A DNA stretch of 64,000 nt from an uncultured Gemmatimonadota bacterium (GTDB lineage: Bacteria > JAAXHH01 > JABIQT01): assembly GCA_964470965.1 (NCBI GenBank), contig CAYYIS010000005.1, positions 88,057 through 152,056 on the forward strand, in the 5' to 3' direction. The notes below the pieces were generated by a model. That model was not told the DNA's origin, did not search any database, and worked only from the letters and a program-made list of their open reading frames with translations. A program made the position numbers and the translations under genes. Below are positions 32,567 through 40,448 of the stretch, in pieces (the stretch's first letter is position 1; each line of letters starts with the position of its first letter).

Positions 32567-32686
32567 CTCCGTTAGAAAAACACAAAGATACAGGGTAGGC
32601 TGGATCTCCTGATCGGCGGGCACCTGTTCATGGTTCCGGTACACGGCTCAGCGACCAGCCCAACCCCAACAAAGGAGAAGACTCTC

Positions 32687-33562
32687 TTGCAAGCACTTGA
32701 GTATGCTACACCGCAAAGTGTATCCGACGCGGTGGGACTGCTGAATGAAAACGGCGTCAACGCCCTTGTCTTGGCCGGCGGAACCGACGTCATCGTACAG
32801 GTTCGAGAAGGCCGCAGGCCTGCCGATCTGGTGGTCGATATCAAACATATACCGGATGTCAACGAACTCTCGTATCATCCGTCGGACGGACTGCACATCG
32901 GCGCGGCCGTACCCTGTTATCGAATTTACGGAGATGAAGCGATCGCAAAGGCGTATTCCGGATTGGTAGATTCGGCCTCACTGATCGGAGGTACGGCCAT
33001 CCAGGGCCGTGCGTCCCTGGGCGGCAACCTTTGCAACGCTTCCCCCGCTGCAGATTCCATCCCGGCGTTGATTGCCTACGGCGCCGTATGCACCATAGCC
33101 GGACCAAACGGCTCTAGGCAGGTAGCGGTGGAAGATTTCTGCACCGGTCCGGGAAGAACCGTTCTGGGGAAGGGCGAATTCCTCGTTTCGTTTGACATTC
33201 CAGCGCCGGAAGCCAATGCAGGCTGTTATTATTTGAGGTTCATACCCCGTAATGAAATGGACATCGCGGTTGTCGGGGTTGGAGCGAAAGTGGTGCTAAG
33301 CGATGACCATTGCCGGTTCCAATCAGCCCGGATCGCAGTCGGCGCGGTGGCGCCGACCCCTCTGTTCGTACGGGAAGCCGGCGACGGGCTGGCTGGAAAA
33401 GCGGTATCCGCCGAAGTGATTCAGGAGGCGAGTGAACTCGCACGGGGTGCGGCGCGGCCGATCAGTGATATGCGCGGCACAGCGGAATACCGGACCCATC
33501 TCACCGGTGTATTGACCAAACGCGCCATCCAGGGCGCCGTGCAAAGAGCGAAGGAGTCTTAA
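32687..33562 (+). CDS. Xanthine dehydrogenase family molybdoenzyme, FAD-binding (medium) subunit (CoxM/XdhA-like)
   Basis: FAD-binding domain LAGGTDVIVQ. CO-dehydrogenase-flavoprotein C-terminal domain. Start set at in-frame TTG 32687 with AAGGAG 9 nt upstream; the ORF-track ATG 32630 adds 19 non-conserved residues. Confidence 0.8.
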   Translation: MQALEYATPQSVSDAVGLLNENGVNALVLAGGTDVIVQVREGRRPADLVVDIKHIPDVNELSYHPSDGLHIGAAVPCYRIYGDEAIAKAYSGLVDSASLIGGTAIQGRASLGGNLCNASPAADSIPALIAYGAVCTIAGPNGSRQVAVEDFCTGPGRTVLGKGEFLVSFDIPAPEANAGCYYLRFIPRNEMDIAVVGVGAKVVLSDDHCRFQSARIAVGAVAPTPLFVREAGDGLAGKAVSAEVIQEASELARGAARPISDMRGTAEYRTHLTGVLTKRAIQGAVQRAKES

Positions 33563-33565
33563 TCG

Positions 33566-34042
33566 ATGCCCAGTAAAGTACATGTACAGGCCACGATCAA
33601 CAGCGAAGAGGTGGAGTTCCTCTGTGAAACACGCCAGAGCCTGCTGGAAGTCCTGCGGGACGTGCTTGGATTTACCGGTTCCAAAGAAGGCTGCAACAAC
33701 GGAAACTGCGGAGCCTGCAGTGTCATACTCGATGGACGTCTGGTAAATTCATGCCTGGTGTTCGGTTTTGAAGTCCAGGGATGTGATATCCAGACCATAG
33801 AAGGCATCGGTTCACCCGAAGATTTGCATCCGCTTCAGCAGCAGTTCCTCGAGCATGCGGCGCTGCAGTGCGGTATCTGCACGCCCGGGTTCATCGTGGC
33901 TGCGAAAGCGCTGCTGGACCGGAATCCGGATCCGACCGAAGCCGAGGTACGCAACTGGCTGGCTGGCAACCTGTGCCGCTGCACAGGCTACGACAAAATC
34001 GTCCGCGCGGTTGTGGATGCGGCAAAGGTATCTCAGACTTAA
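33566..34042 (+). CDS. Xanthine dehydrogenase family (2Fe-2S)-binding small subunit (CoxS-like)
   Basis: 158 aa. Plant-type ferredoxin Cys cluster CNNGNCGACS and second cluster CGICTPG...CRCTGY. Confidence 0.85.
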   Translation: MPSKVHVQATINSEEVEFLCETRQSLLEVLRDVLGFTGSKEGCNNGNCGACSVILDGRLVNSCLVFGFEVQGCDIQTIEGIGSPEDLHPLQQQFLEHAALQCGICTPGFIVAAKALLDRNPDPTEAEVRNWLAGNLCRCTGYDKIVRAVVDAAKVSQT

Positions 34043-34063
34043 CACAAGAAGAGGAGAGACAAC

Positions 34064-36337
34064 GTGTCTACGAACGGATACAAAGTCATAGGGACGCGAC
34101 CGATCCGCCACGACGGAGTCGATAAGGTGACCGGCCGTGCCCTGTACGGCGCGGACATCCGGCTAACCGGTATGCTGCACGGTAAAATCCTGCGCAGTCC
34201 CCACGCCCACGCCCGTATAAAGAATATCGATACAAGCAAGGCCGAGGCGTTGCCCGGTGTAAAAGCAGTTGCTACGGCTGCGGACCTTCCACAGGTCGCC
34301 GACAAAATCGCCGATCTGGGCGAGGCCATTGTGAACCTGCGTGACGCAAGCAATAACGTACTGGCCTACGGAAAAGTTCTGTACAAAGGCCATGCAGTCG
34401 CAGGCGTAGCCGCCACGAATCCCCACATCGCTGAAGAAGCGCTTGGACTGATAGACGTATCATATGAAGTGCTGCCCCATGTCACCGGGGTGCGCGAAGC
34501 CATGAAGGACGATGCGCCGATCCTGCATGAAGATATGAAGATGACCGAAATGGGTGAAGAAACCGATAAAATCAGTAATATCGCCAGCCATTTCCAGCAC
34601 AAACAGGGGGATCCCGAAAAGGGATTTTCCGAGGCGGATGTGGTGATAGAACGTGAATTCGACACGGCGACGGTCCATCAGGGTTATATCGAACCTCACA
34701 ATGCGACCGCCGTGTGGAATGAAGAAGGCCACCTGACTATTTATACAAGTACGCAGGGTGCATTCGCGGTCCGCGATCAGCTCGTCGAAATTCTTCAGAT
34801 TCCCGTATCAAAAGTCAAAATTGTCCCCATGGAAATAGGCGGCGGTTTCGGTGGGAAGATTTCGGTCTACACCGATCCGGTGGCTGCAGTCCTGTCCAAA
34901 AAATCCGGTCATCCCGTCAAGACGACCATGGACCGAGACGAGGTGTTCGAAGGCACAGGACCAACGCCGGGTTCCTATCTCAAGATTAAAATGGGCGCTA
35001 CAAACGACGGACGCATCATCGCGGCGACCGCTTACATGGCTTATGAGGCCGGCGCCTATCCTGGCTCCCCGGTCGGCGCCGGCGCCGGTTGTATTCTGAC
35101 GCCCTACAACATCCCGAATGTGCAGATTGACGGTTATGACGTGTGCGTCAACAAACCCAAGACAAACGCGTACCGGGCACCGGGCGCTACGAATGCGGCG
35201 TTCGGTTCCGAGACGGTGGTGGATGAACTGGCGGAAACGATCGGCATGGATCCGTTGGAATTTCGTATCAAGAACGGCGTCAATGAAGGTCACCGCCGGC
35301 CCGATGGCCCCGAACATCCGAGGATCGGTTGCATCGAAACCACGGAAGCGGCGAAGCAGTCCAGTCACTACGCGTCGACACTTGAACCGTCTACCGACGG
35401 CAAGCTGCGTGGTCGTGGCGTTGCCTCCGGATACTGGTTCAACTTCAACGGTGGCCGGTCTGCTATCTCCGTCAGCGTCAACGATGATGGCACCATCAAT
35501 ATGATGGAGGGATCAACCGACATCGGCGGCAGCCGCGCCTCTATCGCCATGCAGCTCGCGGAGACGGTCGGTATGACCGCACAAGACATCAACCCACGCG
35601 TGGTCGACACCGATGCCATCGGCTATACGGATGTGACCGGCGGGAGCCGCACCACGTTCGGTACAGGCATTGCGGCCCATGCCACCGGCCAGGCCTTGAT
35701 CCGCGAAATGAAGGAGAGGGCATCACAGATCTGGGACGTGTCGGCGGACGCTATCGAATTCAAGGACGGGGTGTTCTCCTATAAGGATGATGACGAGAAA
35801 CGCGGTACCTTCAAGGAACTGGCCGGAAAAATCGGCGGGACCGGCGGGCCGCTTGTGGCCCAGGTGAGCACCAATCCGGACGGCTCCGGCGGCGGAGCGT
35901 TTGCCACTCACATCGTCGATGTGGAAGTGGATCCGGACACCGGCAAGGTGGATATCCTACGTTACACCGCAGTTCAGGATGTAGGCACAGCTATCCATCC
36001 GAGCTATGTGGAAGGACAGATGCAGGGCGGTGTGGTACAGGGTATTGGCTGGGCTTTGAACGAGGAGTATATCTACAACGATAACGGCGAGATGACCAAC
36101 GCCAGCTTCCTCGACTACCGCATGCCCACGACCCTCGATCTTCCCATGATCGAAACGATCATGGTGGAAGTACCCAACGTCAGCCATCCCTACGGTGTCC
36201 GTGGCGTCGGAGAAGTGCCTATCGTGCCGCCACCCGCGGCTATCGCCAATGCGATCTACCAGGCGACGGGAGTCCGCATGGTCGATCTGCCAATGTCACC
36301 GCCCCGCTTAACCGCGGAGATGGCGAACAAGGGGTAG
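34064..36337 (+). CDS. Xanthine dehydrogenase family molybdopterin-binding large subunit (substrate unknown; not form-I CODH)
   Basis: 757 aa. Aldehyde-oxidase/XDH a/b-hammerhead and Mo-binding domains. The active-site loop reads AYRAPGA rather than the AYxCSFR loop of CO dehydrogenase. Confidence 0.8.
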   Translation: MSTNGYKVIGTRPIRHDGVDKVTGRALYGADIRLTGMLHGKILRSPHAHARIKNIDTSKAEALPGVKAVATAADLPQVADKIADLGEAIVNLRDASNNVLAYGKVLYKGHAVAGVAATNPHIAEEALGLIDVSYEVLPHVTGVREAMKDDAPILHEDMKMTEMGEETDKISNIASHFQHKQGDPEKGFSEADVVIEREFDTATVHQGYIEPHNATAVWNEEGHLTIYTSTQGAFAVRDQLVEILQIPVSKVKIVPMEIGGGFGGKISVYTDPVAAVLSKKSGHPVKTTMDRDEVFEGTGPTPGSYLKIKMGATNDGRIIAATAYMAYEAGAYPGSPVGAGAGCILTPYNIPNVQIDGYDVCVNKPKTNAYRAPGATNAAFGSETVVDELAETIGMDPLEFRIKNGVNEGHRRPDGPEHPRIGCIETTEAAKQSSHYASTLEPSTDGKLRGRGVASGYWFNFNGGRSAISVSVNDDGTINMMEGSTDIGGSRASIAMQLAETVGMTAQDINPRVVDTDAIGYTDVTGGSRTTFGTGIAAHATGQALIREMKERASQIWDVSADAIEFKDGVFSYKDDDEKRGTFKELAGKIGGTGGPLVAQVSTNPDGSGGGAFATHIVDVEVDPDTGKVDILRYTAVQDVGTAIHPSYVEGQMQGGVVQGIGWALNEEYIYNDNGEMTNASFLDYRMPTTLDLPMIETIMVEVPNVSHPYGVRGVGEVPIVPPPAAIANAIYQATGVRMVDLPMSPPRLTAEMANKG

Positions 36338-36340
36338 GGT

Positions 36341-36610
36341 ATGCCCACCGTATGGATTCCATCCCTGATGCGCAATCTGACGGACGGGGTTGAGAAGATA
36401 AAACTCGACGCCGTATCGGTGGGTCAGATAGTGACGCAACTGGACGAGAAGTACCCGGGATTCAGAAAACGGATATGTGACGAACAGGAAGATCGCATCC
36501 GGCCAAACATCGCGATAATGGTCGACGGGCGTAACGTAAAAATGGGACTGCAGGAAAAGGTGGACCAAAACAGTGAGGTGCACTTCCTGCCAGCAATCAA
36601 GGGAGGGTAG
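36341..36610 (+). CDS. MoaD/ThiS-family ubiquitin-like sulfur-carrier protein (C-terminal Gly-Gly)
   Basis: 89 aa. Beta-grasp pattern and diagnostic C-terminus ...HFLPAIKGG followed by stop. Starts 4 nt after the large-subunit stop. Confidence 0.7.
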   Translation: MPTVWIPSLMRNLTDGVEKIKLDAVSVGQIVTQLDEKYPGFRKRICDEQEDRIRPNIAIMVDGRNVKMGLQEKVDQNSEVHFLPAIKGG

Positions 36611-36628
36611 GTTCCTCGCTTGTAAATG

Positions 36629-36669
36629 AAAGGCCGTTCCATATGACAATGGGACGGCCTTTTTATTTT
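36629..36669 (+). terminator. Rho-independent terminator of the molybdoenzyme-moaD operon
   Basis: 12-bp stem (AGGCCGTTCCAT / ATGGGACGGCCT, one G·U) with 6-nt loop, followed by TTTTTATTTT. Confidence 0.7.
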
Positions 36670-36927: not shown

Positions 36928-37512
36928 TTACACGTGTATCCGTTCGAGGATGGAATGCAGACGTTCGTAATCGTCTTTGAGCAGACGGGCGACCTCTTTG
37001 CCAGCCCGAACCAGATAGTTTCCGTTTTCACCACGAGCCAGATAGGCATTGCGGATGGCTGCAATGGTGAGCTCATCGGACGGGACCCTGGTCTGGTTAA
37101 AAATTGGGCGGAGGTAATGGGATCGGTCCGTGAAACTCGCAATCTCTTCCGCGGAACAGAAATGCACAAAGCTGTGGATTTTGGGCGGTTGAGGCGGCAG
37201 GGACTGGTAAATACCCGTGTCATCTTTGTAGCCGATGATTAGCGAGGTGAATTCTGTGCGTAAAAGTTCAAATATCTGAGGCTGTTCGAGGCGCAGTTCG
37301 TCCTCTGTCTTCCCGTACGCCGTGGGCCTCCGATTCGGCTCCATGCTCTGAGTGGCCACGCTGTATACGATCGCATAGACAATCGGATAGCTGTCTATCT
37401 TGACATAGGCCCCGAAGGGAGGCGCGCCGTGTAGCACGCGGCTCTCTGCCGTGAACTCAATCGTGTTACTCTCAATTACCTCTCCCACATGCGGTTGGCC
37501 CTGCTCAGCCAT
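36928..37512 (-). CDS. HerA N-terminal (HAS-barrel)-like protein lacking the ATPase domain; degenerate P-loop
   Basis: 194 aa. N-terminus VGEVIESNTIEFTAESRVLHGAPPFGAYVKIDSYPIVYAIVYSV follows the HerA HAS-barrel pattern ([IV]G.VI...T.E...ER.V..G.YV...V.AL[IV]). P.QPP...A.EE block matches the HerA PDIPPF...EDEE strand. ELTIAAIRNAYLARGENG sits where the HerA Walker A (AILAATGSGKS) would be, and the protein ends about 70 aa later. Recalled from memory of HerA; needs HMM confirmation. Confidence 0.45.
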   Translation of the reverse strand: MAEQGQPHVGEVIESNTIEFTAESRVLHGAPPFGAYVKIDSYPIVYAIVYSVATQSMEPNRRPTAYGKTEDELRLEQPQIFELLRTEFTSLIIGYKDDTGIYQSLPPQPPKIHSFVHFCSAEEIASFTDRSHYLRPIFNQTRVPSDELTIAAIRNAYLARGENGNYLVRAGKEVARLLKDDYERLHSILERIHV

Positions 37513-37533
37513 TACTATCCTCCGTCATTTCCA

Positions 37534-38721
37534 TTAAATCAACAATCTGCGTTTCGAAATATTCTTGCGCGATACTTCGGATCGGACACCACCGATGACG
37601 TATGAATCGCTTAATAAACGATAGAACAACTCCCGGTCGGCTCCTCGGACAACCGCTTTCTCATGGGCCTCGGACAGGACAATCGGATATCCCTTTCCTT
37701 TTTCCACCTGGTCGCACACCGTGGCATGAACAAGATCCAAGAGTTTCGAATCCTGGGCCACCCATTCGGGTATTTCCACTCGGGCCACTTCGAAGCCCAC
37801 ATTAACATAGAAGAAATAAATTCGATGACGACCATATTCCTTCAGTATTTCGGATGTACTGCGGAACAGCACGGAACGGTCTCCAGGATTGTGGAGCACC
37901 CGCCCGAAGAGCACGCGGTCCGTCAAGCCTTCGATCACGGTGCAGGGAGGCCTGTCCGGATGGAGCGTGTGCTGCGGGCAGGCGTCGCAGGCCGGGACCT
38001 CATCTTCGGGGCACAGCCCCACGCGCAGGGCGTTGACTACATCCGCACTGTTGGGACTGCTGATGTACCCGGCCACCGGAACCCCCGCGTCGGCAAACCG
38101 ATCGAAGGCGCCCATCGTCTCTTTTAGCATCGGAATTTTGAAGTCGTCCGGCTTTCCTTCCAGCGTCCAGTCGATCAGGGTTCCATCGGACATACCCACC
38201 GCTTTCGTACGTGAGTCGGGAATTTCGTCTATCAAATCCGCCAGTGTCGTCAATTCCATCACACCGCGCCGGATCCCCACAACTTCGGCATTGATAGGTA
38301 TTCGCTTGCCGCTCCATTCCACATACAAATCGTCTTCATTGAAAAACAAACTCGGCTTGCTGGCAAGGATAGGACGTTCTCTGGTGCCATAGTGAATTAC
38401 GATGGTTCCGATGTTTATGAGATAGCAGTTAGACACTTCATGGCGATCCGGAAATAGCTGAGAGCCGTCCGTCGCCAGCAGCGTGATCTGGGCCGGGCGT
38501 TCGGGACGTTGTCTATGAATCGTCATCGGTTCAAGTATTTCGCCCACCAGCCAGCCGGGTTTGCTGCGTCCAATCTTTTCAGCAAGGAATCGCCAGTCCA
38601 CTGTCCAGCGCCGGGCTTCCTGGTACGCCCTTTCCAGTTTATTTCCGGAAGCACGCTGCACGGAATGTTGCTCCCGGACCATGATGCTAATCTGCTGTTT
38701 TGTCGCTATGTGATCAAGCAT
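37534..38721 (-). CDS. NurA-like RNase-H-fold nuclease
   Basis: 395 aa. LLATDGSQ (first DGS motif) at about residue 95. Acidic E about 70 aa later. Second DG[ST] motif VGMSDGTLIDW. C-terminal His (SEAHEK). Spacing resembles the NurA D-E-D-H catalytic arrangement. No Walker motifs. 22 nt upstream of the HerA-N-like gene on the same strand. Confidence 0.45.
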   Translation of the reverse strand: MLDHIATKQQISIMVREQHSVQRASGNKLERAYQEARRWTVDWRFLAEKIGRSKPGWLVGEILEPMTIHRQRPERPAQITLLATDGSQLFPDRHEVSNCYLINIGTIVIHYGTRERPILASKPSLFFNEDDLYVEWSGKRIPINAEVVGIRRGVMELTTLADLIDEIPDSRTKAVGMSDGTLIDWTLEGKPDDFKIPMLKETMGAFDRFADAGVPVAGYISSPNSADVVNALRVGLCPEDEVPACDACPQHTLHPDRPPCTVIEGLTDRVLFGRVLHNPGDRSVLFRSTSEILKEYGRHRIYFFYVNVGFEVARVEIPEWVAQDSKLLDLVHATVCDQVEKGKGYPIVLSEAHEKAVVRGADRELFYRLLSDSYVIGGVRSEVSRKNISKRRLLI

Positions 38722-38978
38722 AGGCCTGCGCCGCCGTTCCGTATATGTGGGGTGTTATCGTCTTATGATACTACCTGACAGAAATTTCCAAAAGACCAAA
38801 CACCTTATAACTAAACATTTGTATCGTGGATGTCAAGGAATTTATGCCTGAGCTTCTGTCGCCCAGTGGGTTACGGTCCATTTCCTCCAGGGCATTTTGC
38901 ATTTCATTAGGGGCCGAAAGCGGTAGTTCCTGCTTGACAGTAAACGGACACGCACATACACTTACGCTACGGAAGGAG

Positions 38979-40448
38979 ATGCCTTTGAGCCAGGCCGATG
39001 ATGCGTCTTCGCATAACCAATGGAAAGGGCTGCTGCTGTGGCCTCTGGTCGTCGCTGTCTTGTTCGTACTGCCGTCCCTCAACGACGGTCTTGTGTCGGA
39101 CGATTATGAATTGATCGCAGAAGGCACCATCAGGACATCCGATCACATACTGGAGGCTTTGACAGAATCCGGTATGGCGGGGTTTTATCGTCCGGTTCCG
39201 AGACTTCTTCTGGGAATTAATCGGGCGATCCACGGTTTGCACCCGTTCGGCTACCATTTCATCAATGCGCTTGTACATGCGGCAGTGGTGATAGTCCTGG
39301 TGAAGCTGCTGTCCACGGTAACCGCAGGGACCGCCGTTCCGCTGATCGCCGGGGTGCTGTTCGCCGGGCATTTTGTGCATGTAGAACCGGTGTACTGGGT
39401 CTCTGCCCGAAACGAACTGCTGGCTGCCCTGCTGTACTTGGCTGCCCTATTGTGTATCACGCGAGAAGCGAAACGCTTAAGGATCGCGGCGCTTGCGGTT
39501 TTTTTTCTGGCGCTGCTCACGAAGGAGACAGCCGTTACCCTGCCGTTTACAGTGGTTCTGGTGACTATTTATAGGATAGGTGGGTCATATGCTGAGAGAA
39601 TCCGGTGTGGGTTGCGCTCCGGTCTGCCCTTCGCGGGTGTACTCGGTGTTTATGGGCTGTTGAGGTGGAGCGCTGGCGCCGACTGGCCCTGGTCCAGTCG
39701 GGGAGTCGGATTCGGTATCGACCCGTATCTGATCGTAAAAAACATCGAGCAATACACCGTGCAGCTTTTGGTGCCGGTCCGATCGCTTATGGACCTTCAA
39801 TCCATAGATACCTACGGCGCCGTAACTGCCGCCGTCCGTTCCGACGGTTCAGATGCCGGGATCTGGCCATGGTTGTTGCTCGGAGCAGTCCTGCTGATCG
39901 CCGGGATCTGGATAGCCATTCGGATCGGGGGGAATTCGGCTGCCGCCGGACTCGTTTTCACCGCCACAACCGCGCTGCCGTTCCTCTTTATGGATAACAC
40001 CGGACTCCGATATATGTATCTACCTTCTGCAGGATTTGTATTGACTGTCGCGGCCTGTCTGACCGGCCTGGCAGGCCGCTGGACCGACGCCACACAGGGT
40101 GAAGTGATTCAATGGTGGCTCCTTCGTGTCATTGTATGTATATTGCTGCTGTTATCATTGGAACAAACGCGCTGGTGGGATGAAGCTGGTAGGTTGTGCG
40201 CTTCGACGGTCGACCGTGTTCTGACTCATGCGGCAACCGTTCCGACCGGCACAGGGCTCTACGTATTCGATATACCGCGCCGGCTACACGGCGCCTATGT
40301 GTTTCATAACGGTTTCGAAGAGGCCGTTCGTATGAATAACCCCGGTAGTTCGCGTTCCATACTAGACGGTGAACGCATGCTGGAACAGGAAGGCGTCCTG
40401 CCGGATGGAATCATGATATTCCGGCTGAACGAGCCAGTAGCCAAATGA
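38979..40448 (+). CDS. Polytopic membrane protein, GT-C-fold glycosyltransferase-like (PMT/ArnT/TMTC-type N-terminal module)
   Basis: 10 or more TM helices. First periplasmic loop carries DDYE...FYRPV, reminiscent of the DD/DE + R-P motifs of the GT-C GT39/83 families. Start set at ATG 38979 / TTG 38985 after AAGGAG; the ORF-track start 38826 adds a non-hydrophobic extension. Confidence 0.5.
   Translation: MPLSQADDASSHNQWKGLLLWPLVVAVLFVLPSLNDGLVSDDYELIAEGTIRTSDHILEALTESGMAGFYRPVPRLLLGINRAIHGLHPFGYHFINALVHAAVVIVLVKLLSTVTAGTAVPLIAGVLFAGHFVHVEPVYWVSARNELLAALLYLAALLCITREAKRLRIAALAVFFLALLTKETAVTLPFTVVLVTIYRIGGSYAERIRCGLRSGLPFAGVLGVYGLLRWSAGADWPWSSRGVGFGIDPYLIVKNIEQYTVQLLVPVRSLMDLQSIDTYGAVTAAVRSDGSDAGIWPWLLLGAVLLIAGIWIAIRIGGNSAAAGLVFTATTALPFLFMDNTGLRYMYLPSAGFVLTVAACLTGLAGRWTDATQGEVIQWWLLRVIVCILLLLSLEQTRWWDEAGRLCASTVDRVLTHAATVPTGTGLYVFDIPRRLHGAYVFHNGFEEAVRMNNPGSSRSILDGERMLEQEGVLPDGIMIFRLNEPVAK

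Follow-up and report, generated by a model that had tools for sequence, protein, structure and literature searches.

NurA and HerA are treated as a two-protein machine for DNA end resection. In the Deinococcus radiodurans system, encoded by two genes with no barrel-only third protein (PDB 7f6d), the NurA dimer sits on the ring of HAS-barrels (PMC9960219). When Sulfolobus HerA is deprived of its HAS domain, it continues to form oligomers but no longer binds NurA (PMC3326311). Here, we analysed a nurA gene and its short neighbour in a 64,000-nucleotide (nt) stretch of an uncultured Gemmatimonadota bacterium (contig CAYYIS010000005.1, positions 88,057 to 152,056), hereafter the window. The neighbour encodes a HerA-type HAS-barrel without the ATPase. 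It belongs to an undescribed, widespread family of about 200 amino acids (aa), in which the barrel is followed by a C-terminal helical bundle, and it mostly occurs between nurA and a complete herA, the latter being missing from the locus in the window.

The NurA nuclease and its barrel-only neighbour

Both open reading frames (ORFs) lie where a preliminary description, made from the sequence alone, had placed them and have the lengths it gave (395 and 194 aa). They are as tightly spaced as it held, with a gap of 21 nt in place of the 22 nt claimed. The peptides it quoted are present as well, ATDGSQ at residues 83-88 and MSDGTLI at residues 177-183 of the longer protein and IAAIRNAYLARGENG at residues 150-164 of the shorter one.

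As the preliminary description had proposed, the longer protein is a true DNA nuclease of the NurA family. It matches Pfam PF09376 with 116.3 bits (cutoff 21) and an E value of 2.1e-33 over profile positions 2-254 of 254. Neither sequence nor profile searches of PDB with it detected the solved NurA structures, so the fold was tested by a model. The AlphaFold2 model on 30 homologues has the RNase H-like NurA fold, with a mean predicted local distance difference test score (pLDDT) of 86 and a predicted template modelling score (pTM) of 0.84.

The catalytic residues of Pyrococcus furiosus NurA are D51, E105, D126 and H411 (PMC3300031). They are matched here by D85, E156, D179 and H353, according to motif order and the Pfam register rather than a structural superposition. 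Alignments of 19 and of 30 sequences show no variation at these four residues, and across 73 sequences each is conserved in at least 97%; H353 lies within the peptide SEAHEKA. A motif of four cysteines, C237, C245, C248 and C260 (CP-x6-CDxCP-x10-C), is conserved across this NurA clade. This Cys4 insert (residues 237-260) falls in a moderately lower-confidence part of the model and may bind zinc or another metal.

The 194-aa protein is a HerA-type HAS-barrel without the ATPase, in agreement with the preliminary description, and not a HerA. Its match to Pfam PF09378 is marginal (25.7 bits against a threshold of 25.2), a PDB sequence search with it returned nothing informative, and NCBIfam matched neither this protein nor NurA. 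In its model, which is confident (pLDDT 84, pTM 0.78), a beta-barrel interrupted by a helical insertion precedes a bundle of five helices. Foldseek with this model against PDB gave 49 significant matches, all to HerA-type chains. The N-terminal HAS-barrel of HerA is thus present, while the Walker A and B motifs and DUF87 (PF01935) are absent from the protein and only helices come after the barrel.

The most conserved block of the short protein is the insertion in the barrel, about residues 57-83 (NRRPTAYGKTEDELRLEQPQIFELL / EPNRRPTAYGKTEDELRLEQPQIFELL). The same block has the lowest model confidence, with pLDDT of 55-68. Being the most conserved yet the least confidently modelled, it suggests a candidate element for binding a partner or DNA.

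The short protein had been said to match HerA residue by residue through the barrel. The hhalign comparison of the short family with the full co-encoded HerA family and with the HerA N-terminal 230 residues gave E values of 0.13 and 0.22, neither of them significant, so the match in that strict form does not stand. What stands is that this non-significant alignment is collinear with the first ~200 HerA residues, pairs LPPQPPKIHSFVHFCSAEEIASF with IPGH----FSMVQEAEEEDVSRIF and leaves the HerA P-loop in a gap beside ARGENG. The invariant G171-K172 pair was considered as a vestigial GK[ST] and dropped, since the lysine is not conserved in remote members.

The family is large. A word-indexed search yielded 754 relatives of the short protein, with lengths of 180-245 aa among the 120 listed. 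An exhaustive hidden Markov model search over 1.84 billion cluster representatives found 987 clusters (50% identity) at E <= 1e-3 and 235 at E <= 1e-30. The best 150 of the 987 clusters are 120-372 aa long with a median of 204, and most of them cover about positions 7-195 of the 196-position profile.

Invariant columns, 48 in number, run along the whole short protein including its post-barrel half. The family signature of E..E.S.T, P.FG, RRP.A.G, QPQ...LL.T.F, LPP.P..H.F and RL..I is present in the window protein. Named members are annotated only as 'hypothetical protein' or 'HerA barrel domain-containing'. In the literature searched, nothing relevant came up on a free-standing HAS-barrel protein or on HerA or NurA in Latescibacteria.

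Gene order in the relatives and in the window clade

A scan of species-representative genomes gave 183 stretches with a relative of the short protein, and the best 80 of the 183 were examined. The carriers are mostly Latescibacterota, with some metagenome-assembled genomes (MAGs) labelled Gemmatimonadota, Moduliflexota/KSB3, Thermosaccharophagus and Armatimonadota. Outside the window clade defined below, a full-length herA is directly downstream of the short gene in 62 of the 68 loci with enough flank, and nurA is directly upstream in 64 of 72. The usual unit is therefore nurA, the short HAS-barrel gene and herA.

The short gene and herA are separated by a median of 2 nt, with many 4-nt overlaps. 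The co-encoded HerA is complete, having its own HAS-barrel, DUF87 and the Walker A motif GKTGTGKS, and is 67-100% identical across lineages at phylum-level distances. The linkage is kept in the remote members with 33-45% identity, and the two least typical HerA matches (P0231 and P0239) also come from ordinary linked loci.

Nearly all relatives encode the short protein beside a complete HerA, and the name 'HerA remnant' given to it in the preliminary description is misleading. Rather than a truncated herA, its gene codes for a separate paralogue of the HerA N-terminus, ancient and strongly diverged. 'Remnant' should give way to the notion of a third component, conserved in its own right, that lacks its customary HerA partner at the locus.

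The window clade comprises seven loci (the window, L007, L008 and L011-L014) of 81-98% identity from marine or lake genomes of Latescibacterota type. All seven contain nurA and the short gene. The upstream synteny is kept, with accA, a gene of family GT2 and then the membrane-protein gene (a GH57 gene in L011), and the downstream neighbour is different in each genome. The pair of nurA and the short gene is conserved within this clade; elsewhere, as counted above, it is mostly followed by the full herA.

Adjacency to herA, a feature of the NurA family found in the sister clades, is missing from the 64-kilobase (kb) window and from the window-clade loci. No herA is coupled just downstream of the short gene in any of them, which makes the window atypical for its family. 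A profile of 71 co-encoded HerA proteins and tblastn, applied in six frames to the downstream region and the whole window, found no match. This agrees with the preliminary description, which saw no Walker A downstream, and a frameshifted herA was rejected.

The short gene in this herA-less clade is under strong purifying selection. The synonymous sites are saturated across the clade (proportion of synonymous differences, pS, of ~0.8) with nonsynonymous divergence (dN) of 0.08-0.16. For the one unsaturated pair of genomes, the short gene has a ratio of nonsynonymous to synonymous divergence (dN/dS) of 0.045, and nurA one of 0.11. The identity to outgroups for the window clade versus the herA-linked clades is 52.8% versus 51.3% for the short protein and 48.0% versus 48.5% for NurA.

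Neither protein shows a rate acceleration in the window clade. The clade-diagnostic positions are 3 and 9 in the two proteins, and none of them is at a family-invariant site. The doubt that the preliminary description cast on recent pseudogenisation was well placed, whereas the decaying relic that it also entertained is refuted by the number of clusters, the invariant columns, the low dN/dS and the steady rate.

A clade-specific element lies upstream of nurA (Table). It consists of TTGACA, a spacer of ~13 nt, TGTTTAGTT, another of ~6 nt and TGTTTGG, with a direct repeat. Five window-clade genomes have it in common despite their saturated synonymous sites, once per locus and only upstream of nurA, and it was not found elsewhere in the window or in the sister-clade loci. 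It is probably a promoter with a direct-repeat operator for some regulator.

In the sister clades, nurA is preceded by two regulatory-type genes, one of ~190 aa for a STAS-like and winged-helix protein (52 of 57 loci) and one of ~290 aa for a STAS_2-HATPase_c protein (39 of 57). A third gene, which varies, often comes after them. The arrangement resembles a partner-switching or transcriptional control module, and the window has none of these genes.

The three-gene unit is split also in other lineages. The KSB3/Moduliflexota loci L072, L084 and L088 have the short gene and herA together with nurA absent, while a solitary nurA of the same clade is found in KSB3 loci L099 and L100, where bamA and a gene for a UvrD-helicase/RNase_T fusion follow it directly. 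In Armatimonadota and Thermosaccharophagus, it is the short gene that stands alone, surrounded by housekeeping genes. NurA proteins of this clade are also found in Abditibacteriales and Armatimonadetes MAGs.

Several single loci depart from these patterns. Near the solitary nurA of L099 and L100 are two STAS-domain genes on the opposite strand. L094, a remote member from a Chloroflexi-labelled MAG, has a hicA toxin gene, the short gene, herA and a patatin-like phospholipase gene with no nurA, a neighbourhood more defence-like than those of the Latescibacterota loci. In L093, a long-read contig of 2x coverage, a frameshift has joined nurA to the short gene, and only the first ~50 codons of herA follow before a reverse-strand AstE/AspA gene. 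Either herA is really truncated there or the assembly is faulty.

A putative adaptor role and the rival explanations

We consider it somewhat probable that the window pair is the nurA and accessory-subunit part of a three-component DNA-end-processing system of NurA, the short HAS-barrel protein and HerA, in which the short protein serves as an adaptor and herA is unlinked. Such a system would be typical of Latescibacterota and some neighbouring uncultured lineages. In the window clade, nurA and the short gene would have parted as a pair from herA as well as from the STAS/HATPase_c and STAS-winged-helix genes found upstream in other clades. It would now be under its own promoter and operator, with both genes still fully constrained.

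The HAS-barrel is the NurA-docking surface of HerA, so the short protein most likely uses its barrel to bind NurA, presumably as a dimer. The preliminary description spoke of an oligomerisation barrel, a term at odds with the Sulfolobus HerA, which loses NurA binding and not oligomerisation along with its HAS domain (PMC3326311). The conserved insert and/or the helical bundle may contact HerA, or DNA, and we infer that the short protein would link nuclease and translocase, serving as an adaptor or an assembly factor. Where the module is split, some genomes keep the short gene beside herA and this one keeps it beside nurA, which fits a bridging role.

Several observations weigh against this adaptor reading. 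No herA was found within the flanks of up to 10 kb in the window-clade loci, or in the window within 37 kb on one side and 25 kb on the other. A window-clade herA is not among the 120 HerA matches listed, which are all at least 83% identical and too close to reach one. Moreover, the tightest linkage of the short gene in other clades is to herA and not to nurA, and its retention beside nurA in the window clade is compatible with the adaptor role without proving it.

That herA is encoded elsewhere in the genomes of the window clade appears quite likely from the comparison of loci. The split modules of KSB3, Armatimonadota and Thermosaccharophagus are precedents that favour an unlinked herA, and the lack of relaxation or acceleration in the window clade also points to it. 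The loss of herA from this clade is rather unlikely.

If herA was lost, the pair could be a HerA-independent minimal module, in which NurA works with an ATPase-less ring or clamp of barrels. The ring would thread or hold DNA ends for ATP-independent nucleolysis or recruit another motor, as a passive clamp or docking platform. The window and the six other clade loci, none with herA near the pair, its own conserved promoter element and the strong purifying selection on both genes despite this absence are what such a module would show. We find it unlikely, though, since the loss of the most constant partner should leave a trace, for example faster evolution or changes on the surface facing it, but the rates are not accelerated, the invariant residues are kept and one protein has only 3 diagnostic changes. 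Split but retained modules are known in other lineages, and the characterised NurA proteins need HerA for efficient resection (PMC3326311, PMC9960219). Alternatively, the short protein might be a negative regulator or decoy that mimics the docking face of HerA and holds the NurA dimer inactive, to be displaced by HerA once a DNA end is reached. The barrel is indeed the NurA-binding surface (PMC3326311, PMC9960219), the co-encoded HerA has its own barrel so that an extra one is not obviously needed for docking, and in the split module of the window clade it is nurA that the short gene has remained beside. The same gene, however, stays with herA where nurA is elsewhere (L072, L084, L088 and L094), and its translational coupling to herA fits a stoichiometric partner of HerA better than an inhibitor of NurA. 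The decoy is therefore quite improbable.

The window could also be a partial island of an anti-phage or anti-plasmid system of the HerA-plus-effector type. Defence complexes are known in which a HerA-type ATPase is paired with a nuclease, and the top structural matches include TdpB and TdpA. The sister-clade HerA matches the HerA models of PADLOC, which are generic, and signalling-type genes (STAS-HATPase_c and STAS-winged-helix) go with the module there. But no PADLOC model is matched by NurA or the short protein, and searches of the IMG/VR viral contigs and PLSDB plasmids found no relatives. The high identity of HerA over phylum-level distances and the presence of the module in 183 species genomes make a housekeeping-like pattern, and the window flanks are housekeeping genes in conserved synteny. 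A defence function is thus less likely, and we regard it as very doubtful. As to a decaying herA-nurA operon, whose 194-aa ORF would be what a frameshift or truncation left of the 5' part of herA, the protein does hold only the HerA-like N-terminal part, and its non-significant alignment is collinear as described. This relic was rejected, for there is no ATPase remnant in any frame, dN/dS is that of a constrained gene, hundreds of clusters have the same length, an intact herA co-occurs in most genomes and a recent truncation would not have let the protein diverge so far from HerA. We give it practically no credence.

Layout of the locus and comparison with described systems

The nurA and short genes form a compact transcription unit (Table). 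A Shine-Dalgarno GGAGG sits 6 nt before the short-gene ATG inside the spacer. The two genes share a reading frame, in which the TAA of nurA is followed by a second in-frame stop, TGA, within the spacer. Downstream, only 317 nt separate the end of the short gene from the convergent thiS-like gene of 89 aa, so there is no room for an ATPase domain. The hairpin between them is flanked by A-runs at one end and T-runs at the opposite end, and is likely a bidirectional terminator closing the two-gene operon.

Upstream of nurA is the divergent membrane-protein gene. It is listed as a 540-aa ORF that overlaps the conserved promoter element of nurA. Its homologue in L007 has only 463 aa, so the listed start is likely misplaced and the true one is probably ~70-80 codons further downstream.

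On the other side lies a molybdenum hydroxylase set of coxM/coxS/coxL type, with the FAD-binding, 2Fe-2S and MoCo subunits. The 89-aa ORF, ThiS/MoaD-like with a terminal Gly-Gly, comes after it, and the set is syntenic in L007. No Rfam family reached its gathering score anywhere in the window (1-64000).

Table. Positions of the features discussed, in window coordinates unless a locus is named.
Feature	Position	Strand	Remarks
nurA, 395 aa	37534-38721	(-)	NurA-family 5'-3' nuclease, RNase H-like fold; D85, E156, D179, H353; Cys4 insert
Cys4 motif of NurA	37942-38013	(-)	candidate metal site
Short HAS-barrel-only gene, 194 aa	36928-37512	(-)	barrel at residues 10-118, five-helix C-terminal bundle at residues 121-193
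Barrel insertion of the short protein	37264-37344	(-)	most conserved block
Spacer between nurA and the short gene, 21 nt	37513-37533	(-)	Shine-Dalgarno GGAGG at 37519-37523, read from the sequence
Clade-specific upstream element	38796-38836	(-)	~75 nt before the nurA ATG; from aligning the upstream regions of five window-clade loci
Element part TTGACA	38831-38836		
Element part TGTTTAGTT	38809-38817		
Element part TGTTTGG	38796-38802		
Hairpin, 15-bp stem	36628-36663	no strand	between the convergent short gene and thiS-like gene; from a pattern scan
Membrane-protein ORF, 540 aa as listed	38826-40448	(+)	listed GTG start at 38826
Molybdenum hydroxylase set	32630-36610	(+)	coxM/coxS/coxL type
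STAS_2-HATPase_c and STAS-like/winged-helix genes	L004:4295-6043		equivalents in most sister-clade loci
Solitary nurA locus, KSB3	L099:6745-17054		
Short gene and herA with hicA and patatin-like genes	L094:948-3975		
Frameshifted nurA fused to the short gene	L093:3450-5416		

A branch of the bacterial NurA-HerA systems appears to carry a third, strongly conserved subunit that has the NurA-docking barrel only. If this subunit is an adaptor or a regulator, it would change how the assembly and control of the nuclease-translocase complexes are modelled. A protein of ~200 aa also offers a simple handle on how the face of the HAS-barrel recruits effectors, the same question that arises in the HerA-based defence systems. 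The window clade is a natural place for testing a HerA-independent function of the barrel protein. Should herA be truly lost there, unlikely as we hold this, no NurA system independent of HerA would have come before it, and nature would have provided an experiment in which barrel docking is set apart from the motor.

Neither phmmer nor profile searches of PDB detect any similarity of the window proteins to the D. radiodurans system, and the window NurA differs in its Cys4 insert and in having no adjacent herA. In the archaeal HerA-NurA systems (S. solfataricus, 2ygk and 4d2i; T. kodakarensis, 9x1l and 9x1m; and the P. furiosus NurA), herA and nurA always lie next to each other and are linked to mre11-rad50, and a stand-alone HAS-barrel subunit is missing.

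The defence complexes TdpAB, SIR2-HerA and DUF4297-HerA likewise have no barrel-only subunit. Unlike these HerA-effector systems, the module here has no PADLOC match for NurA or the short protein, no presence on viral or plasmid records, very high conservation and a housekeeping-type neighbourhood. The N-terminal crown barrels of the F1, V1 and FliI-type ATPases are always fused to the ATPase domain, whereas the barrel described here is free-standing with a helical bundle of its own.

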